From positions 1-51,622 of the forward strand of contig JAIXPT010000338.1 of assembly GCA_027486095.1 (NCBI GenBank): a stretch of DNA of 51,622 nucleotides. The letters are read 5' to 3'. Shown here one piece after another: positions 8,444 to 25,800 of the stretch. The position numbers were made by a program, and so were the translations under genes. Position 1 is the first letter of the stretch; every line of letters begins with the position of its first letter. Source of the stretch: Planctomycetaceae bacterium (GTDB taxonomy: Bacteria; Planctomycetota; Planctomycetia; Pirellulales; UBA1268). The notes under the pieces were generated by a model. The model saw only the letters and a program-made list of their open reading frames with translations, did not search any database and was not told the origin of the DNA.

Positions 8444-8521
8444 GGATCATCGCGGCAGATCACAGGCCGTCTCGGGCCTACGATTGATCGGCCTTCAACG
8501 AACACGATCGATCGCGTCCCG

Positions 8522-9157
8522 TCAGCCGCCGTCGAGGGCTTGGAGTGACAGCCGCACGTCGCGGAGTCGAGCCAGCGTCTTCGGCGTGCGCAGCTCAGGG
8601 TACTCCTCCATCAATGCGACGACATCGGCGAGGTCGTGCTGCCGTTTGCTGGGTCGGCGGCGCGGCTCAGCGGCGGCCTCCAGTTTGAGGACGATCAGGT
8701 CGGCTGGCATCGCCACCCGCATGCGGAGGCCATCCGAGAGATCTGTCAGCTCAGCATGCAAAACGGCGTCGGCGATCCCTACGTCCTCGGCGGAAAACTG
8801 AACCGTCGTCCGCAGGCTGCCCGGCCCCGTGGGTGGCGCGCGCCAGTTGTCGCTGTGCTCGTGGCGACCCGTGTGATCAAAGCCGGCGGCCAGCAGTGCG
8901 GCCCGCGGGACGTCGTCGAACCGTGGCACCGCGACGTCGATATCGAGGGTGGTGCGAGGCTCCGTCGTGCGGATCTGCACTGCCACGCCGCCGATCAATG
9001 CGTACGACACACCCGCTTGATTGAGCAGATCTGCCACGAGCCGGAGCGGCCGTTCTTTTGTATCACTCGGATCGATTCCCATCATTTCGGCCCACAGGGA
9101 GTCGAGCCGAAACCCGACCGCCATCCGGCTGCGAGCTGTCTCGGGTGCGGTGCTCAT
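8522..9157 (-). CDS. Nucleotidyltransferase-fold protein (AbiEii/DUF6036-like), solitary
   Basis: ALIGGVAVQIRTTEPRTTLDIDVAV is the hG[GS]..DxD minimal NTase signature. The C-terminal helical part reads DLIVLKLEAA...KRQHDLADVVAL. Start re-called to ATG 9157. Confidence 0.6.
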   Translation of the reverse strand: MSTAPETARSRMAVGFRLDSLWAEMMGIDPSDTKERPLRLVADLLNQAGVSYALIGGVAVQIRTTEPRTTLDIDVAVPRFDDVPRAALLAAGFDHTGRHEHSDNWRAPPTGPGSLRTTVQFSAEDVGIADAVLHAELTDLSDGLRMRVAMPADLIVLKLEAAAEPRRRPSKRQHDLADVVALMEEYPELRTPKTLARLRDVRLSLQALDGG

Positions 9158-9327
9158 GATGAAACTATAACCCGACCGATTAAGCCAGTGTAGATCCCTG
9201 GGCACGGGGGAAAGGATCGGGGACTGATTCTCACGGAATGGCCGACCTGGCCCGGGCGTCAACGGCGCCCGCCTACGGCGGATAAGATGGGCGCGACGCG
9301 GGATCATGCCGCGCCGCAGGAGATGCC

Positions 9328-10518: not shown

Positions 10519-12579
10519 TCAGCTGCGCGTCGTCCTGACAGTCAGGCGAACCGCGGGCGAAAATCCCGCCGCCACCCCGTCGGCCGAGAGACCGCGGACG
10601 GTGAGGATGTGGACGCCCTCACCGAGCGGCGTCGGCACGATCGTCCAGCGGCCATTCACCGCGACCGTCGAGCCGACAGGGATCCCGTTGGCATACAGCG
10701 TGATCCGCTCGCCAGACCGGGCGACGCCACCGATCGGCGGGGCGGCCACGTTGGTCCGCGCGATTCCCGACGTGATGCGAGCCGATGTGCCCCGCACGAT
10801 CGGGGCGACGACCACGTTGTCGGCGAGATTCACCCGCAGGCCGGCGCCCTGCCAGCCGACGTACGGCAGGCCCGAGTTCACGATCAAAAACCCGCGGATC
10901 GTGGAGCCTGCACTGCCCTCCGGAATGTGGATGGCCTGCCCACTCTTGAAATCTCTGATCGTGCCCCCGTGACGGAGCGAGACGTTCGCGACGCCCGGGC
11001 GGATTTCGATGCCATGTCGGAAAGCATCCCGGCCGCCACCCGCGACGTTCACTCTTCCGGTGGCGGTGACGGCTGCGGCACTCTCGAAACGGATGCCCGC
11101 GAGTGCCGCCGTGGCACCGATCGGGCCGCCGAAAGCCACGGATCCTGAGCCGGCCGCGACGGCGAGAGGCTGACGGCCATCGATCGTGTGCGTGAACGTG
11201 ATCCCGCCCCCACCCGCCGCTGAATCCACCCGCGTCGGTCCCATGAGCCGCGCGGGGCCTGCAAATACGACGTCGCCGCTCAACGCCTTGATGCTGCCGA
11301 CGATCGCGATCAGGCCGTTCGCCGCCTGGAGGCGGATATCTCCAGCGACGATGTCGCGTGTGTCGAGCGTGCGAGGACGGCTCGGCAGCGAGGCGGCCTG
11401 GAACGACCGCAGCGACGCACTGGAGGCGGCCGGTTCCATCGCGAAGTCGATGCTCCCGCTCGTGCCACTGGCGGTCTGGCCCGTGCCACCGGCGGCGTTG
11501 ATCGATCCTGCCACGCTGATTCCGTCGCTCGCGGTCAGGGTGATCGAGCCGGCGTTGCCGCCGTAGGCTTTTGTGCCCGACCCGGCCTGTGTGCTCCCGC
11601 CGGCCACCGACAGCCCGCCCAGGCTGAGCGTGGTGCCGGCCTGCATCGTGATCGAGCCGCCGGCCCCGGCCGTAGCCGTGGCCGCCGATGACGACCCGTC
11701 GCTGGCGGTGCTGCCGCCGCCGGCCGACACGCCGCCCGGCACGCTGATTGAGCCGCCGGCCGTGAGCGTGATCGCGCCGCCTCGGCCCGCCGTCATCGAC
11801 CCCGCGCCGCTCGCCGTGGCGGTCGCGTTGCCGCCGTTCGCCGAGAGGGCGCCCGCGATGGAGATCGAGCCAATCGCATCGATGGCCACCGCATACCCGT
11901 TGCCGGCATCCAGCCCACCCGAGCCAGGCACCGGGCCGCTCGTATTCCAGCCGTCATTGAGCAGCGAGCCCGACATCGTGAACGACGCACAGGCGATCGA
12001 GATCGCGCCGGCGAATTCGTCGATATCGTCGATCGCGACGGCCCCCGAGGCCACGATGACGAGGCTTTCGCCAGGGCCATACACGGTCCCGGAGATCGAC
12101 ACCTCACCGGCGTAAATGGCCACTGGTCCGTTCACGCCGATGTAGTCTGCCGCGGCAATGCTGACCGTCGCGATCGGGCTCGTCTCGGATCCGATCGCGA
12201 GGGCCGGGCCGGGGTACGCTGCCGACAAGAGCGGAAGCTGGATCGCCGAGGTGAACCCGAAGAATTGGCCGCCGCCGTTGCTGGCGTTTACGACGTTGAC
12301 CGTAAACACGTCGTCGAAATAGCTGCCCGAGGAAACACCGGAAATCACGGTGCCCCCGAGCCCGGTCACCGTGAAATCGCCGTTGTCGTCGATTGCCAAC
12401 ACGGCAGCATCCGCGGCGGCCCCGTAGGTGAGCGTGAGCGTCATGTCGCTGAGCGACACATCGACGGCCAACGGCGTCTTCGCTTCGAGTGTCTCGAGGG
12501 CGGGTCGATATCCATACCGCTGGCCGCGTGATCTCCGGCGGGCCTGCCGACGGAGCACGGCATCGTACAACTGCCTCAT
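10519..12579 (-). CDS. Large secreted repeat protein (parallel beta-helix-like Gly/Ser/Ala repeats + C-terminal Ig-like domain)
   Basis: Reiterated units occur (GGAITLTAGGSISVPGG, GGSITMQAGTTLSLGG, GSITLTASDGISVAGS). The C-terminal ITLYANGIPVGSTVAVNGRWTIVP...ILTVRG is Ig-like. ATG 12579 has an AGAGAGG SD. The track start is GTG 12609. Confidence 0.7.
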   Translation of the reverse strand: MRQLYDAVLRRQARRRSRGQRYGYRPALETLEAKTPLAVDVSLSDMTLTLTYGAAADAAVLAIDDNGDFTVTGLGGTVISGVSSGSYFDDVFTVNVVNASNGGGQFFGFTSAIQLPLLSAAYPGPALAIGSETSPIATVSIAAADYIGVNGPVAIYAGEVSISGTVYGPGESLVIVASGAVAIDDIDEFAGAISIACASFTMSGSLLNDGWNTSGPVPGSGGLDAGNGYAVAIDAIGSISIAGALSANGGNATATASGAGSMTAGRGGAITLTAGGSISVPGGVSAGGGSTASDGSSSAATATAGAGGSITMQAGTTLSLGGLSVAGGSTQAGSGTKAYGGNAGSITLTASDGISVAGSINAAGGTGQTASGTSGSIDFAMEPAASSASLRSFQAASLPSRPRTLDTRDIVAGDIRLQAANGLIAIVGSIKALSGDVVFAGPARLMGPTRVDSAAGGGGITFTHTIDGRQPLAVAAGSGSVAFGGPIGATAALAGIRFESAAAVTATGRVNVAGGGRDAFRHGIEIRPGVANVSLRHGGTIRDFKSGQAIHIPEGSAGSTIRGFLIVNSGLPYVGWQGAGLRVNLADNVVVAPIVRGTSARITSGIARTNVAAPPIGGVARSGERITLYANGIPVGSTVAVNGRWTIVPTPLGEGVHILTVRGLSADGVAAGFSPAVRLTVRTTRS

Positions 12580-13419: not shown

Positions 13420-13435
13420 GATTGAGCTTTGAGAG

Positions 13436-13505
13436 GATTACTGTCACGCGGGTCCCGTCGCTTCCGCTCCGGGCTTTATGTGGCCAGTGCAGGATCGGGC
13501 TTTTC
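13436..13505 (+). repeat. Interspersed repeat family A (core ggtcccgtcgcttccgctccgggcttt), copy 1
   Basis: About 70 nt are similar to the reverse complement of 27265..27340. The core also recurs at 39136..39160 and 40865..40889. Confidence 0.8.
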
Positions 13506-13525
13506 AATCATCACGAGTGGCGGGC

Positions 13526-14542
13526 TCAGGGGGCGAGCGGGGCCGGCGTGGTGGCGGCATACGCTTCATACGCCCGGCCGATGCCTGCCTGCTCTTCGTC
13601 GCCCTCGTGGAAGATGAAGCGGTGCCGCAGGCTGATGCGGTCACCCGCCGCGAGGGCCACCGCCCCGCTCTCGGCCTCCGGGTTCATCTGCTTCATGCCA
13701 AAGGGATTCGCGCAGAACAGGCCGTAGGTGCGCACATGCCAGGCCGTGGGGTGCCGGAAGCTCGATGGGTGGTTGAGGATCGCGATCCCGAGATGCTCGC
13801 CTTCGACAGGGCCGTGGTAATCCACCCAGGCGGCGTGCTTCGACCAGGCCTCGGCGTCGCGATCTCCGGCACTGTTCACGATGGTGCCGCCTGCTCGCCG
13901 ATCGACCGCCATGCTGTCGGGCACGCGGATATACACGCCGGCGTCCTTCATGTCGGCAAGCTGCACAGGGCCATGCGCCGCCACCAGATCGATATCGACA
14001 TCGATGATCCGCGCACTGTCGGCCGTCGCAAACGTCATCCTCCGCTCTTCGGCCACGAGCGGCCTGTTGGCCGCGTCCACGATGTCGTTGTGGGCGTGGA
14101 TGACGGCCGTCGTGCCGCCGGCGAGCGCGCGGTAGCCGCGATGCCTGATGGCCCCGAGCGTCGTCATCTTCTCGGCCTTCTTCGCATCCTCTCCATACCC
14201 GATCGTGGCGGCCTCGACCCACGTGTCGAATCCCGCCACCCCCTGATGGGCGAAGGTCAGCCCGCGCTGGTGCACATGGTCGGTCGTTTCACCAGGTTCA
14301 TCCGCCATGGGAAACGCCCGCGTCATCGCCTTGCCGGTCGGCCCGATGATCCGCCACAGGAAGGGCTTGTTGGCCCGATCGACGAAATACTCCGCGATTG
14401 GCTCGCCGTGAAGCCGGACGATCGCCCCCCCGGTGGCGGTTTTGGCCACCTCGAAAGGCTCGGCCGCCCGGGCGAGCCCTGTCGCCGTGCATCCCACGAC
14501 GGCCAGCCTGAGAACCACCCGCTGCCAACAAGGCCTGATCAT
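13526..14542 (-). CDS. PmoA-family / DUF6807-type protein (historical name; no methane-oxidation role implied)
   Basis: Signal peptide. KPFLWRIIGPTGKAMTR and DHVHQRGLTFAH motifs resemble the family usually paired with Gfo/Idh/MocA oxidoreductases in PVC genomes. It sits divergent to such a gene. Confidence 0.7.
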   Translation of the reverse strand: MIRPCWQRVVLRLAVVGCTATGLARAAEPFEVAKTATGGAIVRLHGEPIAEYFVDRANKPFLWRIIGPTGKAMTRAFPMADEPGETTDHVHQRGLTFAHQGVAGFDTWVEAATIGYGEDAKKAEKMTTLGAIRHRGYRALAGGTTAVIHAHNDIVDAANRPLVAEERRMTFATADSARIIDVDIDLVAAHGPVQLADMKDAGVYIRVPDSMAVDRRAGGTIVNSAGDRDAEAWSKHAAWVDYHGPVEGEHLGIAILNHPSSFRHPTAWHVRTYGLFCANPFGMKQMNPEAESGAVALAAGDRISLRHRFIFHEGDEEQAGIGRAYEAYAATTPAPLAP

Positions 14543-14611: not shown

Positions 14612-16084
14612 ATGCCGCTGACCCGTCGCAGTTTCGTTGAACGTGCGCTCTCCCTCGCCGCGGCCGCCACCGCTGCCGACCGGCTGTCGGTTGCCGCCGA
14701 CGCCACTCCCGGCCCGGCCCGCGCGGCCGGTCTGAACGAGAAGATTCGCGTGGCCGTGGTGGGCGTCGGCCCGGCAGGCCGCGGGTTTAGCCACATCGCC
14801 GGCTGGCTCGGCAATCCCACCGCCGAGCTCGTGGCCATCTGCGATTGCGACCCCGAAGCCGAGGGCCGCGTGGCCAAGCGGCTCGAAAAGAAGCCTGCCA
14901 AGCCGAGGTTTGAAAAAGACTACCGCCGGCTCCTCGAAGACGACTCGATCGACGTGATCTCGATCGCCACCCCCAACCACTGGCATGCCCTGATGGCGAT
15001 CTGGGCGATGCAGGCCGGCAAGGATGTGTATGTCGAGAAGCCTTGCAGCCACAACGTCGAGGAGGGCCGCGTGACCACGCAATGGGCCCGCAAGCTCGGC
15101 CGGATGTGCCAGATGGGCGCGCAGAGCCGCAGCATGACGGGCATGCGGCAGGCGATCGAATTCATCCACTCAGGGAAGATCGGCACGGTGAATCTGGCCC
15201 ATGCGCTCTGCTACAAGCGCCGCAAGAGCATCGGCCTCGTGGATACGCCCGCGCCCTTGCCGCCCGGGCTCGATTTCGATCTGTGGGCCGGGCCGGCACC
15301 GGCCGTCGTGCCGCATCGCGAGCGGCTGCATTACGACTGGCACTGGAACCGCCTCACCGGCAACGGCGACCTCGGCAATCAAAACCCTCACGAGCTCGAC
15401 AAGGCCCGCTGGGGCCTCGGCAAACAGACGCTGCCCACGCGGGTGGTGAGCCTCGGAGGTCGGCTCGGCTACCACGACAACGGTGACACTGCCAACAGCC
15501 AGATCACCCTCTTCCAGTGGGACGACGCCACGGTCGTCTCCGAGGTGCGCGGGCTCGAGCTCAAGACGCCGCCCACGATCGCCCGCCAGGCCGGCCCCGT
15601 CGCGGTGGCCAACATCTGGTGGGGCACCGAGGGCTATGTGGTCGCGCCCAGCTACAACAGTGCCGTGGCGTTCGACTACGACGGCAAAGAGCTCGGCAAG
15701 TGGTCGGGCGGCACCGACCAACTGCACTACGACAACTTCCTCGAGGCCGTGCGCAGCCGCGACCGCTCGACGCTGCACCTCGACATCGAAGACGGCCATC
15801 TCTCGAGCGCCATGGCGCACCTGGGCAACGTGTCGTGGGCGCTCGGCGAGAAGGCGAGCCTCGGCGCTCGGCCGAAGATCGCCGCCGCCGAGCCCCGTGT
15901 CGCCGAGACATTCGCCGCCTTCGAGGCCCACCTGCGCGACAATGCCATCGATGACTCCGACACGCCCTACCTGCTCGGCCGCGAGCTCGCGATCGACGCG
16001 GTCACCGAGACGTCGAGCGACGCCGAGGCCAATGCCCGCTTCAGCCGCGAGTATCGCAAGGGCTACGACTTGCCGCGGGTGTAG
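14612..16084 (+). CDS. Gfo/Idh/MocA-family oxidoreductase with Tat-type signal
   Basis: MPLTRRSFVERALSLAAAATAA is a twin-arginine-like leader. IRVAVVGVGPAGRG is the Rossmann motif, followed by EKPCSHN. Start re-called to ATG 14612 (GGAGAAAG SD). The 378-aa N-terminal extension in the track is antisense to the previous gene. Confidence 0.85.
   Translation: MPLTRRSFVERALSLAAAATAADRLSVAADATPGPARAAGLNEKIRVAVVGVGPAGRGFSHIAGWLGNPTAELVAICDCDPEAEGRVAKRLEKKPAKPRFEKDYRRLLEDDSIDVISIATPNHWHALMAIWAMQAGKDVYVEKPCSHNVEEGRVTTQWARKLGRMCQMGAQSRSMTGMRQAIEFIHSGKIGTVNLAHALCYKRRKSIGLVDTPAPLPPGLDFDLWAGPAPAVVPHRERLHYDWHWNRLTGNGDLGNQNPHELDKARWGLGKQTLPTRVVSLGGRLGYHDNGDTANSQITLFQWDDATVVSEVRGLELKTPPTIARQAGPVAVANIWWGTEGYVVAPSYNSAVAFDYDGKELGKWSGGTDQLHYDNFLEAVRSRDRSTLHLDIEDGHLSSAMAHLGNVSWALGEKASLGARPKIAAAEPRVAETFAAFEAHLRDNAIDDSDTPYLLGRELAIDAVTETSSDAEANARFSREYRKGYDLPRV
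16053..16081 (+). repeat. Left copy of a perfect 29-nt direct repeat (atcgcaagggctacgacttgccgcgggtg)
   Basis: Forms the last codons of the Gfo/Idh/MocA gene (..YRKGYDLPRV*). It is identical to 22253..22281. Confidence 0.95.
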
Positions 16085-16137
16085 CCTGTTCACCTCGACC
16101 GTGCCCCGCCCCCGAATGCCTCCCACGCACGGCTCCC

Positions 16138-16998
16138 ATGCACGAATGGATTCGCGATCTCGCCACCCGGCGATTCCCCAAGGGCGTGCGATCCCAGGGC
16201 GGCCAAGACTGGATTCTCGCCGAAATCTTCCGCCACGTCCCGACCGTCAACGCGCCGCCGTTCTGCGTCGAGTTTGGGTTTGATGCCGCCACGCTCGACG
16301 GCGGCACGGGTGCCAACGTCGCCGCGCTCGTGCTCGATCACGGCTGGCAGGCCCTGCTGCTCGATCGAAGTCACGAGAACCCGGCGATCAATTTGCGGCG
16401 GGAATTCCTCCATGCGGGGAATATCGTCGCGGTGTTCGCGAAGTGGGCTGTGCCGACGCAGCCCGACTACATCTCGATCGACGTCGATTCGACGGACCTC
16501 TGGCTCTTCCGCGCGCTCCTGCCACACTACCGTGCGGCCGTCTATTCGGTCGAGTACAACTGCCACTTTCCGCTCGAGCTTTCCGTCACCCGTGGCGACG
16601 ATGCCGATGCGTGCTGGCGCGGCGACCGCGGCTACGGGGCGTCGCTCACGGCACTCGCAGCCGTGGCCCGTGAACACGGCTATTCACTCGTCGCGGTCGA
16701 GCCCATGCTCGACGCATTTTTCATCCGCGACGACCTGCTCGACGACGGCTCACTGGAACGCGCACCACCCCTGGAAACGTGGCGATTCGCCACCGACCTG
16801 CGGATTCATGCCCCTGTGCAGCGGCGGCGCCACGTCGGCTCATGGCTCGATTACGACGTCTGGCGCGCGAGCGGCGGAACCGTCTCCGCCGCCCGGCGGG
16901 CAGCCCGCGCTGCCTGCCTCCCTTATCTCTGCGAGCCAGCCCAGCCTCCCTGGCTCACGCGGACGTGGCGGCACATCATGGGCCGCAAGGGCCATTAG
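16138..16998 (+). CDS. FkbM/Methyltransf_21-like protein (putative SAM-dependent methyltransferase)
   Basis: SQGGQDWILAEIF....CVEFGFDA...GWQALLLD resembles the SQxGED..L..F / V(D/E)xGA / GW.G.LIE pattern of FkbM-type methyltransferases. The match is degenerate. Confidence 0.5.
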   Translation: MHEWIRDLATRRFPKGVRSQGGQDWILAEIFRHVPTVNAPPFCVEFGFDAATLDGGTGANVAALVLDHGWQALLLDRSHENPAINLRREFLHAGNIVAVFAKWAVPTQPDYISIDVDSTDLWLFRALLPHYRAAVYSVEYNCHFPLELSVTRGDDADACWRGDRGYGASLTALAAVAREHGYSLVAVEPMLDAFFIRDDLLDDGSLERAPPLETWRFATDLRIHAPVQRRRHVGSWLDYDVWRASGGTVSAARRAARAACLPYLCEPAQPPWLTRTWRHIMGRKGH

Positions 16999-17138
16999 CC
17001 AGCTCACGCAGTCTGCGCACAGACGCAGCTTCGCGACGCAACCTCGAGACTTGGCACGAGTCGGGGCGATCCGGATTCCGATAGCCTCCACAGGCACCAA
17101 GTCACTGGTAAGCCGTCGCTTTCACGAAGACCTGACGA

Positions 17139-18959
17139 ATGATCTCGATCATCATCCACGCCACGGGGGATCCCGATCTCGCCTGTGAGACGATTCGGCG
17201 GGCCACCTGCATGGCCGCGGACAATCGGCAAGTGATCGTCGTGGGGGCGGTGGATGATCTGCGCGCCCGCATGAGATCCTGCCAGCCTGGATCAGAGCTC
17301 ACCTGGGTCGCAGGGCCCAGGCTCAATCGGGCCGCAGCCGTCAATGAAGGCCTGCGCGTGGCACATGGCGAGATGATCTCGACGCTGTCCACCGGTGAAT
17401 TCCATTTCGACGATACGCTGCGCATCGTCGCCGAAGCCGCCCGGCAACACCTCTTCACCGACTGCTTCTACGGCGACGCCATGCTCACCGACGCAGCCGG
17501 CAAGCCGGTCGCCGAGTTCAACGCCTCGGCTCGACCCGAGCGGGCCCAGCGGCCCAGGCTGCGGTTGTGCCCCGCGGCCGTCTTCATCCGCCGCCATGCC
17601 CTCGACCGCATCGGCCCGCTTGATGCGTCGCTTCACGCCTGGGCCGATTACGAGCTCTGGCTGCGGCTCGCACGCGCCGGAGCCACGTTCACACATCTAC
17701 CCCGGCTGCTGGCCTCCCGGCCCACGAGCGCCGAAGATCCGGCTCCGAGCGACTTTGCCGTCATCCCGAGCCGGCATTCGCTCGACGAATTGATGCGCGT
17801 GCGCCTGGCCAGTGGGGCGTGGCCACTGTCTGCGTCCATGGTCGCCTGGTATGGCGTCACGCGGGCCCTGGCATCGGCACCTGCCACACGCAGTCGCGGC
17901 AGTCTGCGGACGGCGCTGCATCATGCGTGGGAAGCGCAGCGTCGCTTTGGTTCCGGCAGGCCGGCCTGGCTCCTGAATCAGCCGACCACCGCCGTGATCG
18001 TGCTGGCCGCCTCCACGGCCGGCAAATTCCTCTCCGAGTTTCAGGTCAAAGTCCGCAACCCGTTGAAGCTGCGCAGATTCCAGGCTGTGAGAAGCAAGAT
18101 TTTCCGGCTCCGACACCACGCGCCACGCCCGCTTTCACTCCCCCGTCACTACGCCCGCTCCCGCGTCCTCTTGTCACCGCCCTCGATCTCGATCGTCACC
18201 CCGAGCTTCAATCAAGGCCATGTCCTCGAGCAGACGATCCGCAGTGTCCTCGACCAGGGCTATCCGGCGCTCGAGTACGTGGTGCAGGACGGAGGCTCGA
18301 CCGACTCGAGCGTGGACATTCTCCGCCGATACGCCCCGCAGCTCTCATCCTGGGACTCCGCGCCAGACGGAGGACAGGCGGCGGCCATCAATCTCGGCAT
18401 GCGCCGCACATCGGGTGAGATCATGGCCTATCTCAACTCGGACGACATGCTCCTTCCCGGCAGCCTCGCCTACGTGGCCGAGTATTTCCAGAATCATCCG
18501 GAGGTGGACGTCGTCTACGGGCACAGGATTCTCATCGACGAGGATGGCCGGGAAATCGGCCGCTGGGTGCTGCCGCCGCACGACGACCATGCCATCGCGT
18601 TCAGCGACTTCATCCCGCAGGAAACGCTCTTCTGGCGGCGACGTGCGTGGGATCGAATCGGAGCGCACATCGACGAATCACTCCGATTCGCGCTGGATTG
18701 GGATCTGATCCTTCGTTTCCGTGAGGCCGGTCACGTGTTTCGCAGGCTGCCGAGATTCATCGGTGCCTTTCGTGTGTGGCCAGATCAAAAAAGCTTGTCG
18801 TCGTGGCTGCCGTGGGGCCGGCGCGAGAGCGAACGGCTCACCGCTCGGACGCTCGGCAGCACGCCATCCCGTTCGACCACGCGCCGCGAAATCCGCCGAT
18901 ATGTGCGGCACCACTGGCTCTGCGACAAGCTCTATCAGGCAGGGATGCTGCGTTATTGA
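17139..18959 (+). CDS. Tandem family-2 glycosyltransferase (degenerate N-terminal GT2-like domain + canonical C-terminal GT2 domain)
   Basis: C-terminal domain: ISIVTPSFNQG, VQDGGSTD, YLNSDDML (DxD), QETLFWRRRAWDRIG. N-terminal domain: ISIIIHATGD... and AAVFIRRHALDRIG. Confidence 0.8.
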   Translation: MISIIIHATGDPDLACETIRRATCMAADNRQVIVVGAVDDLRARMRSCQPGSELTWVAGPRLNRAAAVNEGLRVAHGEMISTLSTGEFHFDDTLRIVAEAARQHLFTDCFYGDAMLTDAAGKPVAEFNASARPERAQRPRLRLCPAAVFIRRHALDRIGPLDASLHAWADYELWLRLARAGATFTHLPRLLASRPTSAEDPAPSDFAVIPSRHSLDELMRVRLASGAWPLSASMVAWYGVTRALASAPATRSRGSLRTALHHAWEAQRRFGSGRPAWLLNQPTTAVIVLAASTAGKFLSEFQVKVRNPLKLRRFQAVRSKIFRLRHHAPRPLSLPRHYARSRVLLSPPSISIVTPSFNQGHVLEQTIRSVLDQGYPALEYVVQDGGSTDSSVDILRRYAPQLSSWDSAPDGGQAAAINLGMRRTSGEIMAYLNSDDMLLPGSLAYVAEYFQNHPEVDVVYGHRILIDEDGREIGRWVLPPHDDHAIAFSDFIPQETLFWRRRAWDRIGAHIDESLRFALDWDLILRFREAGHVFRRLPRFIGAFRVWPDQKSLSSWLPWGRRESERLTARTLGSTPSRSTTRREIRRYVRHHWLCDKLYQAGMLRY

Positions 18960-18980
18960 ACGCCCACGTTCTTCGGCGTC

Positions 18981-21461
18981 TCAACGCTTCCTGACAAAGA
19001 GCACGTCTTTCTGCTCGAGCCGCGCCGTCCGCGGATCGCGCCAGCCATCGGCCTCGTCGAAGAGTTCGAATCCGAGGCTCGTCATCTGCGCACAGATCTC
19101 GGCATAGGTCCGAGCGTCGTCATGCCCGCGAGTGAGGCTCAGCTCCAGGAACACGGCGTCGATCTTCGCGCGCAGCGTGTCTGCTGCACCTTCCAAGACA
19201 AGATGCTCGGCGAACTGGACGTCGGCCTTGAGCAGAATCGGGGCGCCCCAGTTCCTCGAGCGATCGAGCGCGTCGATCGTCGTGCAAGGGATGTGCACCC
19301 GAGCCGTCTCTCCGTGCACCTGGTCCACGGAGAGGAGCGAACTGCCGTAGAGGCTGTCCGACACGAGCAGGGTCGTCTGACCGCAACGATTCGTGACGAC
19401 CTGCTCGACCACCTCGTGGCTGGGGAGGGCATCGACATACCAGCGTCGCTGGCTCTCCGGGTAGCGGCGAAAAAGGGGCTCGCAGAGCACGAAGTGCCCG
19501 TGCGGAAACACGCTCGCCGCCATCTCGGACCACAGGCCCGTGGATGCTCCGACATCCACCACCGTGCGTGGCCGGCCGCCATTCCGTGCATAGCGCGAGA
19601 GCATCTGCCAGGCGGCATGCCGCGCCCAATACATGCCGCGCGGCGGATCCGGAGCCACGTAGTCCGAGAGCCCGTCCTCCGGCGGCCACAGTTCCTCGAA
19701 TCGTTCGTCGGCCGGGCGGCCGAGCTCCATCGATCTCCAGAGCCAGGGCTCCACGCCAGTGGCCACGAACCGCGGAGCAAGATGATCGCACGTCGCCCGG
19801 ATCTGCCGGGACATGGCTCCGGAACTGACGGCGCCCACGACCTCACGGAGCGACTGTGGCTCGTAGGAAGCCACCTCGCCCAGCCCGAATCGCCGCACGA
19901 AATCCGCCACGGCCGTAGACGGATCCCCCACCACCACGATCGGCGTCCGGATCGCGGCGAGATGAAACACGGCTCGGCTCGGCAGGCTGAGGCGAGCGAT
20001 CGCCCGCGCTTTCTGATCCGTCGGCATGCCGGTGGGCACCAGGAGAAACGGCCGGCGACGCAACTCCGCCACCAGATCATCTCCCCAGAGTGGCTCCCGC
20101 ACGACGATGCCGACCTCGGCCAGCCGCTGTCGATTTGTCCCCACCCACGAAAGCTGCGGGTTGTTGCAAAACCAATCGAGCTCGACGCCGCTGCCATCCA
20201 CGGCGTGCACCACGTGCTCGATCCATTCGGGGCTCCACGCGTTTCCGATGATCGCCCCGCGTCGGTCGGCGACGGGCTGTCGCTCGAAAGGCAGATCGAC
20301 GAGCTCTGCGGGGACAACGGGTGGCAGAAGATAGAATTTTCTGCCGAAGCGTTGCTCATACATCGTCCGCATCTGTGGTGAAATCGCGAACCGCACGTCG
20401 CTGTTTCGAATCGCCTCCTCCATCAGGCTCTCGGGGATTCCGTTGCTGACGAGAGTGTTGTCGTCCATGACGTGCAGGACGAGCCGAGTGCCGAAGAGAT
20501 GCAGCAGGGCGAGCGCCATCTGCAGATCAGTGGCGTGAAAAGGCACCACGTAAGCGCGGCGGGGAGGGGCATGCTCGAACCACTCATGGACACACCGATA
20601 CACATCCGCACGACCGAGCCCGGAGGGGAGTTTTCTCGTGATCGCCGTGGCGACATGCTCTCCCCCATACGAGCTCGTCGATTCGAGCACCGCCATGCTG
20701 CGCAGATCTGGAAACATGTATTGCAGGAGCAAGCCGGTTCCGTGGCGAGCGTTGATTTCGTCCGGACAGACGATGGCCGAGTCGCAGGCCACGGCCTGCA
20801 GCCGCGGCTCGCCGGCGGCTTGATCCGCGTTCGATGATGCGGCCGGCATCCTGGCCGACAGCGGCGCTGGCGATGGCCCGTGGGCCTGCAAGGCGCGCAT
20901 CCCCGCGATCGTCCAGCGAGGCAGATGCGGCGCAAGGCCCTGCCACGTGGTTTTTCGCCGGCCGAATATCCGCCTGGCTGCAGTGGCCTTGCCGCCTCGG
21001 GCAGCCGGGAAATCGCCCGAAAACACCTCGACTGCGGTAATCGGCAGACCGAGTTCACGGGTATCCGGGGCAGCGGCGGCCAGCGGCTGTACGACCAGCA
21101 TCAAGCGCTGACCCACGCCGTCGATCCCGTGCGCTCGCGATACGCGGCACACAAGGTCTCGCCCTGATGCGATCACGTCTCGATCCGCAAGCCGCTGGTC
21201 GTTCCAATACACCTGGAGCGGAATTTTCGACGTACAGCCACGCAGGGCGGCGGTATCGATCCGCACGACGTAATCATCGCGGGGCAGTCGCAGCCCGATC
21301 ACCGCGACGGGCTCGCTCCACCGAAACATGACACCCGCGGCGGTTTCGACAGGATGAAAATTCTGCAGCCGCCCGCCGACCGGGTCGGCGATCGTCATCC
21401 GCATGACCAGCCCCGGTTCATCGGGGAGCGTGTGCGTGTGCTGCCTTGCCGGCGGAATCAT
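18981..21461 (-). CDS. Multidomain protein: unknown N-domain + GT-B-like middle region + C-terminal FkbM-family methyltransferase
   Basis: C-terminal VVDVGASTGLWSE...FVLCEPL...NRCGQTTLLVS...TTIDAL...ILLKADVQFAEHLVLEGA is a classical FkbM layout. The middle region has Rossmann-like alternation. It starts 9 nt after the upstream FkbM gene stop. Confidence 0.7.
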   Translation of the reverse strand: MIPPARQHTHTLPDEPGLVMRMTIADPVGGRLQNFHPVETAAGVMFRWSEPVAVIGLRLPRDDYVVRIDTAALRGCTSKIPLQVYWNDQRLADRDVIASGRDLVCRVSRAHGIDGVGQRLMLVVQPLAAAAPDTRELGLPITAVEVFSGDFPAARGGKATAARRIFGRRKTTWQGLAPHLPRWTIAGMRALQAHGPSPAPLSARMPAASSNADQAAGEPRLQAVACDSAIVCPDEINARHGTGLLLQYMFPDLRSMAVLESTSSYGGEHVATAITRKLPSGLGRADVYRCVHEWFEHAPPRRAYVVPFHATDLQMALALLHLFGTRLVLHVMDDNTLVSNGIPESLMEEAIRNSDVRFAISPQMRTMYEQRFGRKFYLLPPVVPAELVDLPFERQPVADRRGAIIGNAWSPEWIEHVVHAVDGSGVELDWFCNNPQLSWVGTNRQRLAEVGIVVREPLWGDDLVAELRRRPFLLVPTGMPTDQKARAIARLSLPSRAVFHLAAIRTPIVVVGDPSTAVADFVRRFGLGEVASYEPQSLREVVGAVSSGAMSRQIRATCDHLAPRFVATGVEPWLWRSMELGRPADERFEELWPPEDGLSDYVAPDPPRGMYWARHAAWQMLSRYARNGGRPRTVVDVGASTGLWSEMAASVFPHGHFVLCEPLFRRYPESQRRWYVDALPSHEVVEQVVTNRCGQTTLLVSDSLYGSSLLSVDQVHGETARVHIPCTTIDALDRSRNWGAPILLKADVQFAEHLVLEGAADTLRAKIDAVFLELSLTRGHDDARTYAEICAQMTSLGFELFDEADGWRDPRTARLEQKDVLFVRKR

Positions 21462-21470
21462 GAACGGCCT

Positions 21471-22148
21471 TCAGAAATAGTAACCCTGGGCGAGCCGTGA
21501 TGTGCGATTGACGAAGAACACGTCCTGGGCGATCAGATTGCCGGAGTCGTCGCGATACGAGTCGGCAAGCTCGACGGGAAAGAAGCCGCGCGGCGCGAGG
21601 TGATTCATGAGGTCGAGAAGCAGTGGATTGATCCCGCCGTACGCGCGGCTCAGCCACGTCTCCAGAAGAAGGAGCTCGACTCCGGGAAGATGCCGTTCCA
21701 TCCCCTCGAGCGCGGCGAGCTCCCCGCCCTGGATATCCATTTTCACGAACTCGGGCACGGCACCGTACGAGTCGATCACCGCATCGAGTGTCGTCTGCGA
21801 CACGGAAAGCATGCGAAACAGGCCGTTGGTCTCATCGACCGGCAGAGCCGTGCTGCCAGACGCATGAATCGCCCGCCGAAACTCGACCACCGCCTCGGCT
21901 TTGCCGACCGCGACGGGATGGAGCTTCCAAGCAGGCTGTTGTGCCAACCGTGGCAGCAGCCGCTCGCGATACTCCGCATCCTCGTGGGCCAGCGGCTCGA
22001 AGAGGTGATACGTGCTGTGCGGGAAAATCTGCATCATCGCCGACGACCAGTCGCCGTTTGATGCCCCCACGTCGAAAATCACGCGGGGCGCGAAGCCCCG
22101 GTCACGAAAACGCTGCAGCCGCTCGCAATCGACCTCGGCAAATGTCAT
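21471..22148 (-). CDS. FkbM-family SAM-dependent methyltransferase
   Basis: VIFDVGASNGDWS...YHLFEPL...TTLDAVI...FVKMDIQGGELAALEG. Confidence 0.8.
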   Translation of the reverse strand: MTFAEVDCERLQRFRDRGFAPRVIFDVGASNGDWSSAMMQIFPHSTYHLFEPLAHEDAEYRERLLPRLAQQPAWKLHPVAVGKAEAVVEFRRAIHASGSTALPVDETNGLFRMLSVSQTTLDAVIDSYGAVPEFVKMDIQGGELAALEGMERHLPGVELLLLETWLSRAYGGINPLLLDLMNHLAPRGFFPVELADSYRDDSGNLIAQDVFFVNRTSRLAQGYYF

Positions 22149-22252
22149 CGGAGCCTCATTTGGCGAGCACGCCTGAACCGTACCAAGCCCGGGGAATAGC
22201 CCGGCGAGTCGGCCTCGTCAACGGCACTTCCGCTGGCTACGCCGGCGCACGG

Positions 22253-22281
22253 ATCGCAAGGGCTACGACTTGCCGCGGGTG
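22253..22281 (+). repeat. Right copy of the perfect 29-nt direct repeat
   Basis: Overlaps the 3' end (minus strand) of the YhcH-family gene (..ACTRGKS*). The flanking 2-3 nt on each side also match except for 2 positions. Confidence 0.95.
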
Positions 22282-22742
22282 CAGGCGTCGATCTCGACCT
22301 TGACGACGACCTTCACGACCTCAGCCGGTGAGTCGATGCAGCAGCACGGTGCGTGGGCGTCGTCGGGAAACAGGATCATGAACTGCCCCGCTCGCAGCGT
22401 TGCAGGCACCGCAGCGGCCGGCAGCGTAAAGAGGGCCAGATCTTTGACGGCGTCGTAGGGCTGCGTCGTGTGGGTGCATTCGTGCAGCGGTGCCCAGTAG
22501 ATCAGCTCGCCACCGCTCACGAGATACTGCACGTCGATGTAGCGACGATGAGCCTCGACCTGCATCCCGGCGACGGGCCGCGTCTGGTAGCGCTGGGCGA
22601 TGGCATACACCGCATCGCCGGCAATCTCGTGGCGGCCGACGGCGAGGTCGGGGCCTACTTGCTCGAGGAACGCGAACGCACGCGCGAGCTCCGCGTGCAG
22701 CGGGTGGTAGCGGTGCCAGAGCGGAAGGGCGTCGAGGATCAT
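22263..22742 (-). CDS. YhcH/YjgK/YiaL (DUF386, EbgC-like) family protein
   Basis: GRHEI.GD.VYAI.Q.Y.T, EAHRRYIDVQYLVSGGE, FMILFPDDAHAP and VVKVVVKV match the family. Start re-called to ATG 22742. The upstream 133 aa in the track overlap the next gene. Confidence 0.8.
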   Translation of the reverse strand: MILDALPLWHRYHPLHAELARAFAFLEQVGPDLAVGRHEIAGDAVYAIAQRYQTRPVAGMQVEAHRRYIDVQYLVSGGELIYWAPLHECTHTTQPYDAVKDLALFTLPAAAVPATLRAGQFMILFPDDAHAPCCCIDSPAEVVKVVVKVEIDACTRGKS

Positions 22743-22801
22743 GATGTGCGGGCCTTCTACACGATGAGGTTCACCCGAGCTGGAGAACGGCCGACTGGCC
22801 G

Positions 22802-25800
22802 TCACGTTCCGCCGACCACATCGACACGACGCGGCGAGTCTTTCGTCTTCCGGACTTCGGCTCTGACGTCCTGGCTCGCACCCGCCGCAATGGGCACGCG
22901 CAGCAGCAGTTTGTTGCCACCCTTCGCGAGTGGCACGGCACCGGTGTTCGCGAGATCGAGCCGCGCTGCTCCGAGCCAGGCAGCCGTGCCATCGGGCACG
23001 CCGAGCCGGAGGTCCACGGGGCCGGCTGCGTCGGCGGTGATTTCGCCCAGCAGCCACACGGAGTGGCCGGCAGACCCGCCGGGGGCGATAAGGTCGTCGA
23101 GCGGCAGCCCGCCCGCCGTCTTGGCGTAGGCCGATGTCCACCGCAGGCCCCGGCCATTCAAGATCTGCTTCTGCACCTGGTCGTCGGCCGGCACCGCGTT
23201 GGACGCGGCATTCGCAAAATCAGCCGGCGGATTCTCGAGCAGCTTCCACCGCTGGATCGTGGGCGTCGAGCGGATCGCATACGGGCCGGGCTTGCCGAGC
23301 TCCGACACGAATCGCGCGAGATCGAGGAACTCCTGCTCGGTGAGGAAAGCCGTGAGGCCCTTGGGCATCAGTGACTTCCCTTCCACCTCCTCCTCGATGT
23401 CGGCGGCCGGAATCGTGATCATCTTTCCGGTCGCGTCGCGAAGCCGCACGCGCAGGTCGTCGCGATCGACGAGGATTCCAGTGTGGACCTCGCCGGAGTC
23501 GGTGATCACGTTGCGGGTAACATACGCCTCCTTGATCGAGGCATCGGGATTGAGAATCGACGCCACGACATATTCCGGCGGCGAGATCGAGCCCACTGCC
23601 GACAGCTCGGGCCCGATGTTGCCGCCTGCCTTGGCAATCGCATGGCATTTCATGCAGGCGATCTCCGCCCGGCGAAACACCGCTTCCCCACGGGCTGGAT
23701 CCCCCTTCGCCATCACCTCCCCGGCGAGCCGCACGATCTCCTCGTGCGCAGGAGGAGCCCCGGCAGCCGCGATTCCCGCGGCCTTCGTCAGCACGTCGGC
23801 GACGGCCGGCTCAGTGCGGCCCGTGGCATACATGTGCCGGAGAAACATCTTCGCGACATCGGCCGAAGGCGGGCGGCTTGCGAGGGCCGCAGCGAGGGCC
23901 GCCGGCCCGTCGCGCCGGTCGAGGAGCGCGTCGAGCAAGTCCTTGGGCAGCTTGTCGGCGGCGACACCGGCGAGCACCTGGGCCGTGCGGGTCGCGGCGG
24001 CGGCCGCGTCGAGCTTGGCGAGCGCTGCGATCGCGAACAGCCGCACCGGTTCCGGTCGGCTCGATTCACAGAGGGATTCGATCGTGGCCCTCGCCTCGGG
24101 CGTGCCGAGCGTGGCGAGCGCGAGGATCGCCTGCCGCTGCGGCTCGCCTCCGGCCTTCTCGCCGGCGGCGAGCTCATGGAGTGCGGGCACGAGCGCAGCC
24201 TCGCGCCATGCAGCCGCAAGCTTGATCGCGGGAATCTGCTGGCCTCGATCGGGGTCCTGGAGCAGCGGCTCGAGCGGTTTCAGCTCGCCCGTCGGCTTGA
24301 TGCCCCGCTCCACCGCCGCCTGCACGAGCCCCGCGGCGATCGCGGCCCGCTGGCTGGCGGGAATCTTCGCGGGCTCGACAAACTCGGCGAACAGCCAGCC
24401 GAGTTCCTCCGGGCCGCCACGCTCGAGCAGCATCGAGACGGCTGTCCCCACGCGGTTTTCCGGCAGCCGGCCGCTTTCGAGCAGCGTCACGAGCGGCTTG
24501 GCCGAGCCCGACGCCCCGCCCGCCACGGCGGCGGGCACCCGTCGCGACAGCGTCTTGACCGTTTCGTTGAACACATACGAGAGATAGTCGTCTTGTGGCA
24601 TCACGAGCGACTCGATCGCGATGTTGAGCGCCTCCTGATCGCGAAAGAAGCTCAGCGCCCGCACCGCCTCCAGCCGGACGAGCGGATGCTCGTCGGCCAC
24701 GGCCTTCCGCAGCCGGCCATAAGCATCTCCCGCCCGTTCCCGCCAGAACGAAAGCACCCGCACGGCGGCCGCACGGGCTTTCGGCTCCGGCGACGCGAGC
24801 ACTCGATCGAGCAGAGGCTCGTTGACCACGTCCTGCGCCTGAAAGACCCAGAGTGCCTCGACGAGATGGTGCGGCAGTTCGGGGTCTTTCGCATCGAGCC
24901 CTGCGATCCATGCTTCGGTTGCCGGAATCACCTCGGCGGCCGGCCGGGCCCGCAGTTCGGCCCGGGCCCGATAACGCGTGCGATCTTCATACACCTCGAG
25001 CGCGTCGAGCAGTTTCGCGACGGGCTCGCCGGCGATCTTCGTCGGCACGACGAGCGGCCGGTCCTTCGCCTTCACCCTCCAGATTCGGCCGTGGGCATGG
25101 TCGCGATTCGGATCGCGGAGCGAGTGCTGCATGTGGCCGACGAGCGGGTTGTACCAGTCCACGAGATAGAGGCAGCCATCGGCGCCGAATTCCAGATCCA
25201 CCGGCCTGAAGTTGCGATCGTTCGACTTGAGCAGGGGATCGACCGGATCAGCCGCGAAGCCAGAGCCGTCCTCCCGCATCTTGTATTGCAAGACGCCCTG
25301 GAAGCCGATGCAGTTGTTCAGCAGATAGTTGCCCTGGGCGTCGTCGGGAAACTGCCGGCTGGACACGAACTCGCAGCCCGACGTCGGCCGCCACTGCTTT
25401 TGGAGAAACTGCTTCAGGCCGCCGTGCTTGTGGGGATAGTCGATGTCGCCGGAGAAGGCGGTGCCGAAATAGTTCGCGCCGCCCGAGGCGTCGGCCACGA
25501 AATACTGCCCCCAGCGATCGAACGTCTGCCCCCAAGGGTTTGCGAAGCCATACGACACGAACACGTCGAACTGCTCCCGCCTGCGGTCGTAGCGGAAGAT
25601 GCCGGCATTCGAGCAGCGATTCGGCCCGCGGACCGTCTCCACGGCCGTCTGGTGAAACGTGCCTTCCATCATCAGGAGGCCGCCCGCCGGGTCGCACGCA
25701 AAGGCGCCGATCGCATGATGCGAGTCGGCCGAGTCGAAGCCATCGAGCACGATCGTGCGTATGTCGGCCCGGTCGTCGCCGTCGGTGTCTTCGAGAAACA

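Follow-up and report, generated by a model that had tools for sequence, protein, structure and literature searches.

How can a block of accessory genes settle between two genes whose ends overlap, leave both of them intact and contain no mobility gene of its own? The question is raised by four genes for glycosyltransferases and methyltransferases that stand between the gene of a Gfo/Idh/MocA oxidoreductase (OX) and a convergent YhcH/YjgK/YiaL (DUF386) gene, framed by perfect direct repeats. The DNA analysed, a 51.6-kb contig referred to below as the window, comes from a freshwater Pirellulales species.

Results

The 29-mer ATCGCAAGGGCTACGACTTGCCGCGGGTG occurs exactly twice in the window, both times on the plus strand (Table 1), and a third copy was not found there even with up to three mismatches tolerated. 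None of 100 shuffles produced such a pair, which bears out the claim of the earlier note that it is beyond chance. Translation likewise agreed with that note in that the left copy supplies the last residues of OX before the stop codon, whereas the right copy supplies the last codons of YhcH on the minus strand. The left copy is the final 29 nt of OX before the stop, and OX orthologues end in REYRKGYELPRV. Outside the window copies, the 29-mer was encountered only at the conserved 3' ends of OX orthologues or paralogues and is thus not a dispersed repeat. Both copies contain a species-specific C (GAC) where all relatives have GAG or GAA. On reading the sequence, the dyad within the 29-mer spans only 5 bp.

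Related genomes contain the site without the insert. As the earlier note had anticipated, OX and YhcH converge directly in four related lineages, with a 22-nt overlap that in each case surrounds a single copy of the target sequence; OX identity to the window is 93% in L095 and L096, 92% in L104-L106 and 90% in L001. L002 is likewise empty, with the two genes 3 nt apart, and the four cassette genes are also absent from L005 and L007. The site is unoccupied in every relative sampled, whether its OX identity is 92-93%, 89-90% or ~79%, and no other element was seen there in any of the 12 orthologous OX/YhcH loci. The collections searched contained no OX relatives of 93% to 99.8% identity. These alignments show that the cassette entered the OX/YhcH overlap after the split from the nearest sampled relatives. 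As ~51 bp of the overlap is now found on either side, the left copy completes OX, the right copy completes YhcH, and neither gene is damaged.

The duplicated target is longer than the perfect repeat. BLAST against the empty-site relatives put it at ~50-51 bp rather than 29: the homology of the left junction to the single-copy sites of L095, L096 and L001 reaches 16103, and one 50-bp stretch of these three lineages aligns at both junctions of the window. The length given in the earlier note thus needs correction: only the first 29-32 of ~51 bp are identical. In the sister strain L089, a JGI contig 99.65% identical to the window (75 mismatches), position 22282 is T, the TAG is kept and the perfect repeat measures 32 bp. 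Six differences separate the copies beyond the first 32 bp, and they are concentrated in the 9 nt after the stop codon (5/9 differences plus an indel), a segment that is hypervariable among lineages. Segments that would also be expected to drift after an in-situ duplication have changed at 1/19 positions only (Fisher p=0.007): none of the first 10 nt of the right copy and one of the last 9 nt of the left copy, both stretches now being non-coding. The strains still differ at 22282 (TAG or CAG), which shows that the right copy is at the very start of its decay.

The inserted DNA is essentially a conserved cassette, since its limits coincide with those of the same cassette between other genes in L097, L083 and L088. 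Nucleotide homology covers 16133-22232 in comparison with the cassette of L097 and begins at 16124 in comparison with L088. The gap between repeat and conserved cassette is thus only ~30 nt at the left end and ~20 nt at the right end. Exactly four genes, I1-I4, lie between the repeat copies. Domain searches returned one GT2 match (PF00535, E=6e-26) and two FkbM matches (TIGR01444, ~1e-21 and 9e-21). In structure searches, the predicted fold of I1 resembled the sugar C-methyltransferases TcaB9 and KijD1, and the predicted GT-B fold of I3 resembled PimA (TMt ~0.7). The gene assignments made earlier could be retained, with GT2 and FkbM resting on Pfam/NCBIfam matches and a GT-B domain and a methyltransferase-like fold on structure searches. 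One correction concerns I1, listed earlier as FkbM-like: it had no FkbM match in Pfam and shows only a class I methyltransferase-like fold. Homologues of I1 were found in polysaccharide clusters with Wzy_C, DegT, Bac_transf and epimerases. With its glycosyltransferase and SAM-methyltransferase domains, the set qualifies as one for glycan synthesis and O-methylation, and the cassette probably alters a methylated surface glycan. I1-I2 are likely expressed by read-through from OX, and I4-I3 from the cassette's own promoter-like region upstream of I4, which is conserved in the window, L082/L097, L083 and L088 and travels with the cassette. A consensus scan of the junctions detected neither terminators nor sigma-70 consensus promoters.

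Elsewhere in Pirellulales the cassette lies between groES and rnc (L097), between MFS and epimerase genes (L083) and in L088. Flanking repeats were not found at the L097 and L088 loci, and L083 has a 14-nt match only (TCCGTTCCGGGCGT), which may be chance. The sample of the empty-site lineage L095 also yields a contig with the cassette at groES/rnc, and a metagenome scan with an I3 alignment returned five loci, all distant. An apparently broken GT2 gene in L097 proved to be a gene-calling artefact; the gene is intact. The islet is the tetranucleotide outlier of the window, with a GC3 of 77-80% vs 84-88%. The deviation for which the earlier note proposed a check is thus present, but its use as proof of recent foreign origin was rejected: the cassette lies ~10 GC3 points below the flanks in all four hosts examined. 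Divergence at four-fold sites was 0.38-0.61 for the cassette (window vs L097) and 0.20-0.37 for the flanks (window vs L095), a comparison across differing codon bias and between contigs, L097 and L095, not proven to share one genome.

Neither the islet, as already noted, nor any large ORF of the 51.6-kb contig encodes an integrase or transposase; the four genes are assigned to glycosyltransferase and methyltransferase folds. A hidden recombinase in I1 or the N-terminal part of I3 was ruled out by structure prediction and fold search, which gave methyltransferase-like and GT-B folds. Terminal inverted repeats are absent, the best inverted match of the ends being within shuffle range for all four cassettes. 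A diversity-generating retroelement was rejected as there is no reverse transcriptase and the alignment differences are not confined to adenines, and a Xer-dependent IMEX or dif module because the repeat belongs to the conserved coding sequence at the OX 3' end and also occurs at OX homologues with different neighbours. The islet and its near flanks (14713-24580) contain 3 SNPs in 9.9 kb between two strains, vs 4-6 per kb further out; for the two strains compared, this low-diversity tract is compatible with homologous recombination in the flanks.

A second, older islet has the same kind of gene-end duplication, and the two together lie within 14 kb of the contig. It interrupts the end of a 356-aa gene, whose present 3' end (the left copy) has a GC3 of 0.57 vs 0.67-1.0 in the remainder of the gene. 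The gene thus uses a compositionally foreign 3' end, while a native-like relic lies beyond the islet, which means that the incoming DNA brought a copy of the end of its target gene. The region downstream of the 356-aa gene is a hot spot: its cargo differs among the window, L001 and L002, and L095 has none. No core sequence is common to the repeats of both islets, so that a single site-specific recombinase for both is not indicated.

Table 1. Features of the cassette locus and of the second islet in the window.
Feature	Positions	Strand	Remarks
OX, Gfo/Idh/MocA oxidoreductase, 490 aa, Tat-type leader	14612-16084	+	Pfam PF01408, PF19051; translation
Perfect 29-bp direct repeat, left	16053-16081	+	encodes (Y)RKGYDLPRV of OX
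Full duplicated target, left	16053-16103	+	29 nt, TAG, then non-coding YhcH-tail relic CCTGTTCACCTCGACCGTG
OX stop TAG	16082-16084	+	directly after left repeat copy
Inserted DNA, 6,149 bp, essentially the conserved four-gene cassette	16104-22252		homology to cassettes elsewhere
I1, 286 aa, no Pfam family	16138-16998	+	predicted class I SAM-methyltransferase-like fold, pLDDT 90.7
I2, 606 aa	17139-18959	+	solid C-terminal GT2, residues 348-540; N-terminal half weak, degenerate GT2-like
I3, 826 aa	18981-21461	-	GT-B (GT4-like) fold, residues ~225-600; FkbM methyltransferase domain, 633-800
I4, 225 aa, FkbM-family methyltransferase	21471-22148	-	Pfam/NCBIfam
Upstream region of I4-I3, promoter-like: TTGACG, 17 nt, TATTCC	22149-22232	-	inferred from conservation
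Perfect 29-bp direct repeat, right	22253-22281	+	minus strand = YhcH codons TRGKS + stop
Full duplicated target, right	22253-22302	+	29 nt, CAG (L089: TAG), then YhcH tail in use
YhcH stop codon	22263-22265	-	inside right repeat copy
YhcH/YjgK/YiaL (DUF386) gene, 159 aa	22263-22742	-	Pfam domain to residue 150, variable tail
Second case, left copy = 3' end in use of 356-aa gene	8398-8443	+	compositionally foreign
Second islet, ~0.8 kb	8444-9239		absent from sister L095
AbiEii-like nucleotidyltransferase ORF of second islet	8522-9307	-	start crosses right repeat copy into native downstream spacer
Second case, right copy = displaced native-like relic of 356-aa gene 3' end	9240-9285	+	native sequence downstream

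Discussion

We tentatively favour, as a reading with a little less than an even chance of being right, that incoming DNA with a junction copy of its own crossed over with the resident site in the conserved 29-32-bp block. The two target copies would then be two alleles of one junction, not a fresh duplicate that decayed in place. The incoming DNA would already have borne an OX/YhcH junction, coming from a related genome with the cassette at the same site, and would have recombined with the resident site inside the block, which is conserved because it is read on both strands. In E. coli, RecA-dependent exchange needs a stretch of identity of about this minimal length (29-32 bp). A circular form may have integrated by one (Campbell-type) crossover, or the exchange may have been the right-hand one of the two that make a homologous replacement; by either route the variable tail of the donor would stay in the left copy and the resident tail in the right copy. 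Since the cassette supplies no enzyme, the reaction would depend on host RecA or on a recombinase gene at another place in the genome, and homologous recombination in the flanks may later have spread or homogenised the arrangement within the species. The arrangement would now be starting to decay, with TAG turned into CAG at 22282 in the window strain; owing to this change, a deletion from repeat to repeat would lengthen OX by 58 residues.

The empty sites, the 50-bp stretch that aligns at both junctions, the insert limits shared with the cassette elsewhere, the lack of mobility genes and inverted termini, the concentration of the copy differences in 9 nt, the TAG/CAG polymorphism, the low-diversity tract and the foreign gene end of the second islet argue for the crossover. 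On the other side, both copies carry the species-specific C, which would demand either a donor more closely related than any genome sampled or homogenisation of the position in heteroduplex; no donor with the cassette at the OX/YhcH site was found except strains of the same species. Furthermore, the four changes of the resident tail could be one complex mutation or the result of selection after release from the overlap, and the origin of the very first duplication is left unexplained. The cassette without flanking repeats at other loci and the repeats of the two islets without a common core also speak against the crossover. Its main rival, a duplication of the target in place, is possible if rather doubtful. 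The cassette would have been copied or moved from another locus by illegitimate recombination, through a replication template switch that returned 51 nt upstream of its departure or through filled-in staggered breaks, and the identical 51-bp copies would have diverged later; selection would have kept the event, as only a duplication preserves both overlapping gene ends. Self-duplication predicts the lineage-specific C common to both copies. The lack of a mobility gene, inverted termini and conserved arms is in accordance with it, as is the relocation of the cassette without repeats in other lineages, which would make illegitimate events its norm. The perfect part also stops at the OX stop codon, beyond which the left copy is no longer constrained, and the T/C polymorphism at 22282 would represent ongoing decay. 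Such a history is hard to reconcile with 5/9 differences and an indel in one 9-nt segment against 0/10 and 1/9 in the parts that are now non-coding (p ~0.007), or with a coding tail in use that has changed more (4/9) than the neutral relic. Moreover, illegitimate recombination typically operates at the scale of microhomology, far below the 51 bp duplicated here, and it offers no explanation of why the gene at the second islet now uses a foreign 3' end.

Insertion by an integrase at the OX 3' end, with the 29-51-bp repeats as attL and attR, would make the islet a decayed, CIME-like integrative element whose tyrosine or serine integrase and other genes were later deleted, or one mobilised in trans by an integrase elsewhere. 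The geometry is classical, with repeats of a gene 3' end that restore the gene and homology on one side only, which starts sharply at the left edge and continues past the stop codon, and two such islets occur within 14 kb, the second with an element-supplied gene end. Nevertheless, we consider this origin improbable: neither an integrase nor a pseudogene remnant is present, the gaps of ~30 nt (left) and ~20 nt (right) offer no room for arm sites or remnants, another element occupies the site in 0/12 orthologous OX/YhcH loci, the repeats of the two islets have no core in common and the cassette occurs elsewhere without att-like repeats. The proximity of the two islets hints at a general Pirellulales route, to which we give a small chance, whereby cassettes would be inserted at the 3' ends of conserved genes with gene-end duplications of 45-65 bp and without a cassette recombinase. 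Each insert would replace the end of its target gene with one of its own, and through the repeats it might afterwards be excised and enter related genomes, amounting to a mobility-gene-free mobile element served by host recombination or a trans-acting enzyme. It is very improbable that the cassette was ancestral at the OX/YhcH site and was lost repeatedly by direct-repeat recombination restoring the single overlapping junction. A perfect repeat of 29-32 bp could support RecA-dependent deletion, and the cassette family is old in this clade; yet every sampled relative (92-93%, 89-90% and ~79% OX identity) is empty, the L095 sample has the cassette at groES/rnc instead, and the cassette would have to have been lost precisely and independently four or five times at least. 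Since the window is a metagenome-assembled contig, a graph loop at the 29-mer, the true place of the cassette being another locus or a separate circle, also deserves mention but is scarcely credible. The same arrangement is present on the JGI contig of L089, an independent strain (75 mismatches), and three more JGI places are listed as similar; the right junction is crossed by a Logan contig as well (L081, independent), and a graph loop is unable to make the diverged 22-nt extension of the left copy.

The locus resembles several known systems in part. As in the target-site duplications of transposons and IS elements, the target is directly duplicated on both sides of the insert. However, such duplications usually measure 2-14 bp and are identical, whereas 51 bp are duplicated here, the copies are non-identical beyond 29-32 bp, and a transposase gene and terminal inverted repeats are lacking. 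CIMEs are cis-mobilizable elements, integrase-less derivatives with att-derived direct repeats (PMC5704250). With these and other 3'-end genomic islands the locus shares direct repeats derived from the target 3' end, a restored gene and single-copy empty sites in relatives, and the second islet adds a gene end in use from the insert with the native end displaced. In contrast to islands and CIMEs, there is no tyrosine or serine recombinase gene inside, no remnant of integration or transfer genes and no space for them or for arm sites between the repeats and the cargo; the insert is a metabolic cassette that occurs elsewhere without repeats, the target is an overlap of protein genes instead of a tRNA gene, and the two islets have no common core. 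The locus does correspond to the minimal mobile elements of Neisseria (Saunders and Snyder 2002; described in PMC3787668) in being a whole-gene, mobility-gene-free cassette between conserved flanking genes whose presence differs among close relatives. Homologous recombination in the flanks probably exchanges such cassettes, and the tract from 14.7 to 24.6 kb and the neighbouring hot spot would be compatible with this. Minimal mobile elements are defined without flanking direct repeats, whereas a 51-bp duplication is needed here because the flanking genes overlap. A short homologous anchor, host recombination and the absence of element enzymes recall homology-facilitated illegitimate recombination and Campbell-type integration (for example PMC3240628), although the anchors described experimentally are usually longer. 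In content, with GT2, a GT4-like GT-B fold and three methyltransferase-type domains, the cassette is like polysaccharide clusters (O-antigen or EPS-like, methylated glycan), except that its four genes form a compact unit that moves on its own, apart from any larger polysaccharide cluster.

In summary, the locus does not define a new class of element. It documents with unusual clarity, in a natural case, the entry of accessory genes into a bacterial chromosome without mobile-element machinery, since the occupied site can be compared with several empty ones and with the cassette at other loci. A site of overlapping genes can take an insert, provided that the overlap is present twice. If the repeats are two alleles joined within the 29-32-bp block, short dual-coding segments would be natural landing pads, through which related Planctomycetes may exchange cassettes. 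Surface glycan traits are often under pressure from phages or grazers, and such pressure would explain the frequent relocation of the cassette.

Results

The 29-mer ATCGCAAGGGCTACGACTTGCCGCGGGTG occurs twice on the plus strand of the 51,622-bp window; no third copy was found there with up to three mismatches allowed, and 100 shuffles yielded no match. The left copy encodes the C-terminal residues (Y)RKGYDLPRV of the Gfo/Idh/MocA oxidoreductase (OX), whose TAG stop lies directly 3′, and the right copy covers the final five codons plus stop of the convergent YhcH/DUF386 gene (YhcH), read on the minus strand. An earlier note, made from the window alone, had described an exact repeat beyond chance that overlaps these two gene ends, and this description holds. 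It had also considered a repeat dispersed over many loci. Outside the window, all occurrences of the 29-mer were 3′ ends of OX homologues, ending REYRKGYELPRV, which excludes a dispersed element.

Four genes, I1 to I4, lie between the copies (see table). Their annotation as a glycosyltransferase and FkbM methyltransferase module stands for I2, I3 and I4; I1, previously called FkbM-like, falls into no Pfam or NCBIfam family. In a confident structure prediction, I1 resembles class I SAM-dependent sugar methyltransferases, e.g. TcaB9 and KijD1, and its homologues are located within polysaccharide clusters. As the earlier note had stated, none of the four genes encodes a recombinase or transposase, all being of glycosyltransferase or methyltransferase types. 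Neither was found among the remaining large ORFs of the contig, which include rhodopsin, MFS, GSDH, a XylR-like regulator, MR_MLE, ValRS, aspartokinase, homoserine dehydrogenase, GroEL/ES, DnaJ and GrpE. The rhodopsin gene, of the bacteriorhodopsin family (PF01036, E=1.5e-40), opens the contig of this Pirellulales MAG; related loci stem from lake metagenomes.

Features of the window and of related loci
Feature	Contig	Position	Strand	Description
Bacteriorhodopsin-family gene	window	64-915	-	
356-aa gene, 3′ end in use	window	8398-8443		
356-aa gene, displaced copy of the end	window	9240-9285		
Extra DNA relative to L095	window	8444-9239		0.8 kb
AbiEii-like nucleotidyltransferase ORF	window	8522-9307	-	
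Hot-spot cargo	window	8444-9327		AbiEii
Hot-spot cargo	L001	4488-6086		saccharopine dehydrogenase
Hot-spot cargo	L002	639-6071		two sulfatases and YHYH/PBP gene
Hot-spot cargo	L095	~380-420		empty
686-aa gene	window	10519-12579	-	no family, faint Ig-like C-terminus
TIM-barrel/DUF6807 extra spacer	window	13421-13521		~100 nt
SNP cluster, DUF6807 gene	window	13961-14064		~20 differences in 100 nt
OX	window	14612-16084	+	490 aa
29-mer, left copy	window	16053-16081	+	
Left junction segment	window	16053-16103		
Insert	window	16104-22252		I1 to I4
I1	window	16138-16998	+	model pLDDT 90.7
I2	window	17139-18959	+	clear GT2 domain; N-terminal half weakly GT2-like
I3	window	18981-21461	-	GT-B (GT4-like) fold, C-terminal FkbM methyltransferase domain
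I4	window	21471-22148	-	FkbM methyltransferase
29-mer, right copy	window	22253-22281	+	
Right junction segment	window	22253-22302		
YhcH/DUF386 gene	window	22263-22742	-	159 aa
SNP cluster, valS	window	29001-29109		9 differences in 110 nt
valS-end tandem repeat	window	30992-31082		3.1 units of 29 nt
Related single unit	window	41025-41045		DEAD-box helicase gene end
groEL, groES, groEL, dnaJ, grpE	window	43527-47266		groEL, groES, groEL in tandem
Match to both junctions	L095	7050-7099		50 bp
Match to both junctions	L096	2570-2619		50 bp
Match to both junctions	L001	11436-11485		50 bp
14-nt direct repeat	L083	9113-9126, 14938-14951		around cassette
YHYH/PBP-domain gene	L001	11927-13664		between YhcH and large GDSL/HEAT gene
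YHYH/PBP-domain gene	L002	2065-3558		in hot spot
YHYH/PBP-domain gene	L104	4945-7473		adjoins YhcH

Scanning a single genome of each species gave 80 OX loci. The order TIM-barrel gene, DUF6807 gene, OX and convergent YhcH was kept only in the closest of them, and the four islet genes were absent from all syntenic OX/YhcH loci of the scan. Protein look-ups added three lineages closer than those of the scan. OX and YhcH overlap by 22 nt in L095 and L096 (OX identity 93%), L104-L106 (92%) and L001 (90%), each with a single copy of the sequence, whereas in L002 (89%) 3 nt separate the two stops. Where the genes overlap, the equivalent of the window's 29-mer contains the YhcH stop. By BLAST, one and the same 50-bp stretch of L095, L096 or L001 matches both junction segments of the window; the insertion is thus derived, and the duplicated target measures about 51 bp. 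Backed by these empty sites, the earlier note's observation and its reading as an insertion into overlapping gene ends with target duplication are essentially right, the length of 29 bp excepted.

The arrangement recurs on the JGI contig L089, and a listing gives three more JGI places as similar. With 75 mismatches to the window (99.65% identity), L089 is another strain; the right junction is also spanned by a Logan contig of a different run. With the arrangement on L089 and the right junction on the Logan contig, an assembly artefact is practically excluded. The species is present in the samples JGI 3300071647 and ERR14109607. Between window and L089 we counted 0.33 SNPs per kb in the islet, 5.8 in the left flank and 3.9 in the right flank, and 14713 to 24580 holds three SNPs in 9.9 kb. 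This low-SNP tract fits homologous recombination that recently spread or homogenised the islet together with its near flanks. Diversity is patchy, as I4 accounts for six of the seven differences in the Logan strain. Dense SNP clusters against L089 in the DUF6807 gene and valS look like short imports from diverged relatives. The end of valS carries the tandemly repeated unit GTCCGACGTAGGGACAGGGCTCCAGTCCT, present in at least five copies in L089; lacking spacers, it is not a CRISPR array. An imperfect 31-nt match lies at the end of L097.

Relatives of the I3 protein (82%, 68%, 66% and 64% identity) are encoded on contigs that carry all four genes, with order and orientation unchanged, among quite different neighbours: between groES and rnc (L097-L100/L082), between an MFS gene and an epimerase gene (L083), and between a 2-hydroxyacid dehydrogenase gene and another gene (L088). 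Nucleotide homology to the window extends exactly from 16133 to 22232 in L097 and begins at 16124 in L088; thus, the insert is this cassette and almost nothing besides. A promoter-like conserved stretch upstream of I4 is included. The groES in the chaperone cluster of the window is a different copy from that adjoining the cassette in L097. Since L082 and the empty-site contig L095 stem from the same sequencing run, the sister lineage probably has the cassette at another locus. Terminal inverted repeats were found in none of four cassettes, and the other cassette loci showed no flanking direct repeats except a 14-nt match in L083, TCCGTTCCGGGCGT, which may be due to chance; one copy lies directly 3′ of the MFS gene stop. 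In tetranucleotide usage no part of the window deviates more than the islet, and GC3 is 77-80% in its genes compared with 84-88% in the flanks. This deviation had been proposed as a check for insertion. Cassette GC3 is about ten points under the neighbours in every host, so low GC3 is a property of the cassette and not a sign of recent arrival.

A second islet distinguishes the window from L095, in which the 0.8 kb of extra DNA after a 356-aa gene is missing. L095 338-378 matches both window 8399-8439 and 9241-9281, and the islet is flanked by two diverged copies of about 46 bp of that gene's 3′ end, the end in use and the displaced copy being 73% identical. The displaced copy is native-like, whereas the copy in use is compositionally foreign with foreign codon usage (GC3 0.57, the remaining blocks of the gene ranging from 0.67 to 1.0); over 45 nt it shows 11 mismatches to L095. 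Here, the incoming DNA clearly supplied a gene end of its own for the target. No integrase was found at this islet (8398-9285). The start of the AbiEii-like ORF lies outside the extra DNA, past the right repeat copy and within native spacer sequence downstream. Between the 356-aa gene and the MR_MLE gene, this spacer forms a hot spot for cargo, with no relic repeat in L001 or L002. The YHYH/PBP-domain gene, with sulfatase neighbours, changes position among L001, L002 and L104, and a few intergenic spots around the OX/YhcH locus exchange accessory genes. Both the window and L095 have the 686-aa gene between the MR_MLE and TIM-barrel genes; L104 lacks it, and L001 and L002 have a different 0.85-kb segment in its place. 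The extra TIM-barrel/DUF6807 spacer corresponds to 3 nt between aligned blocks in L095.

Discussion

A cassette without a mobility gene has been inserted into the overlap of two convergent genes, and each side of it bears about 51 bp of the target. How it arrived can be approached through the differences between the two copies. Beyond the 29 shared bases, the left copy continues TAG CCTGTTCACC TCGACCGTG and the right copy CAG GCGTCGATC TCGACCTTG. The right copy of L089 begins with TAG, giving a perfect repeat of 32 bp, so the C at 22282 of the window is a recent change; with this C, deletion of the islet by recombination between the repeats would lengthen OX to 548 residues. The 9 nt past the stop codon are hypervariable among lineages (CCTTCCACC in L096 and L001, CCGCCCACC in L104, CCGGCGACC in L095), the remainder of the 51 bp being conserved.

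The explanation we favour, though tentatively, is a crossover with DNA bearing its own copy of the OX/YhcH junction. Such DNA would recombine within the conserved 29-32-bp block, in a Campbell-type event or as one crossover of a homologous replacement, driven by the RecA of the host or by a recombinase supplied in trans, and the islet would later spread through its flanks. The main rival is a true target duplication in situ, in which template switching or illegitimate joining out of register made two copies that then decayed unevenly; it is a real but lesser possibility. If a perfect 51-bp duplicate decayed in place, the newly unconstrained parts should also have drifted. Yet where the right copy has newly become non-coding, the window copies differ at 0 of 10 positions, and where the left copy has, at 1 of 9, against 5 of 9 plus one indel past the stop (Fisher p=0.007, on small numbers), and the tail in use has changed more than the neutral relic. 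Strains still vary at the TAG of the right copy, which suggests that the insertion is young. Together, these observations favour two junction alleles, one arriving with the cassette and one resident, although one complex mutation in the resident tail is possible instead. On the side of duplication in situ, a C (GAC) is common to both copies and absent from every sampled relative; under the crossover, either the donor would be an as yet unsampled relative very near to this species, or homogenisation would have affected the position.

A decayed integrative element (CIME, a concept defined in PMC5704250) is unlikely, there being neither a remnant nor space for one, and no other element at the OX/YhcH site. 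That the cassette was ancestral here and repeatedly and precisely lost is very improbable.

Islands flanked by att sites in gene 3′ ends share the geometry, but their defining integrase is absent here. Minimal mobile elements of Neisseria (PMC3787668) are alike in gene content and population behaviour but are defined without flanking repeats. The islet is neither a transposon, having no transposase among its four genes and no terminal inverted repeats, nor a dif module. It is an integrase-less, repeat-flanked islet, whose special feature is that the duplicated target is a two-gene overlap. Excision between the repeats would give an empty site OX...ATCGCAAGGGCTACGACTTGCCGCGGGTG-TAGGCGTCGATCTCGACC...YhcH and a circle junction ...GCCGGCGCACGG-29-mer-TAGCCTGTTCACCTCGACCGTGCCCC.... 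If gene-end duplications flank many islets in closed genomes of these bacteria, the significance of the finding would rise.
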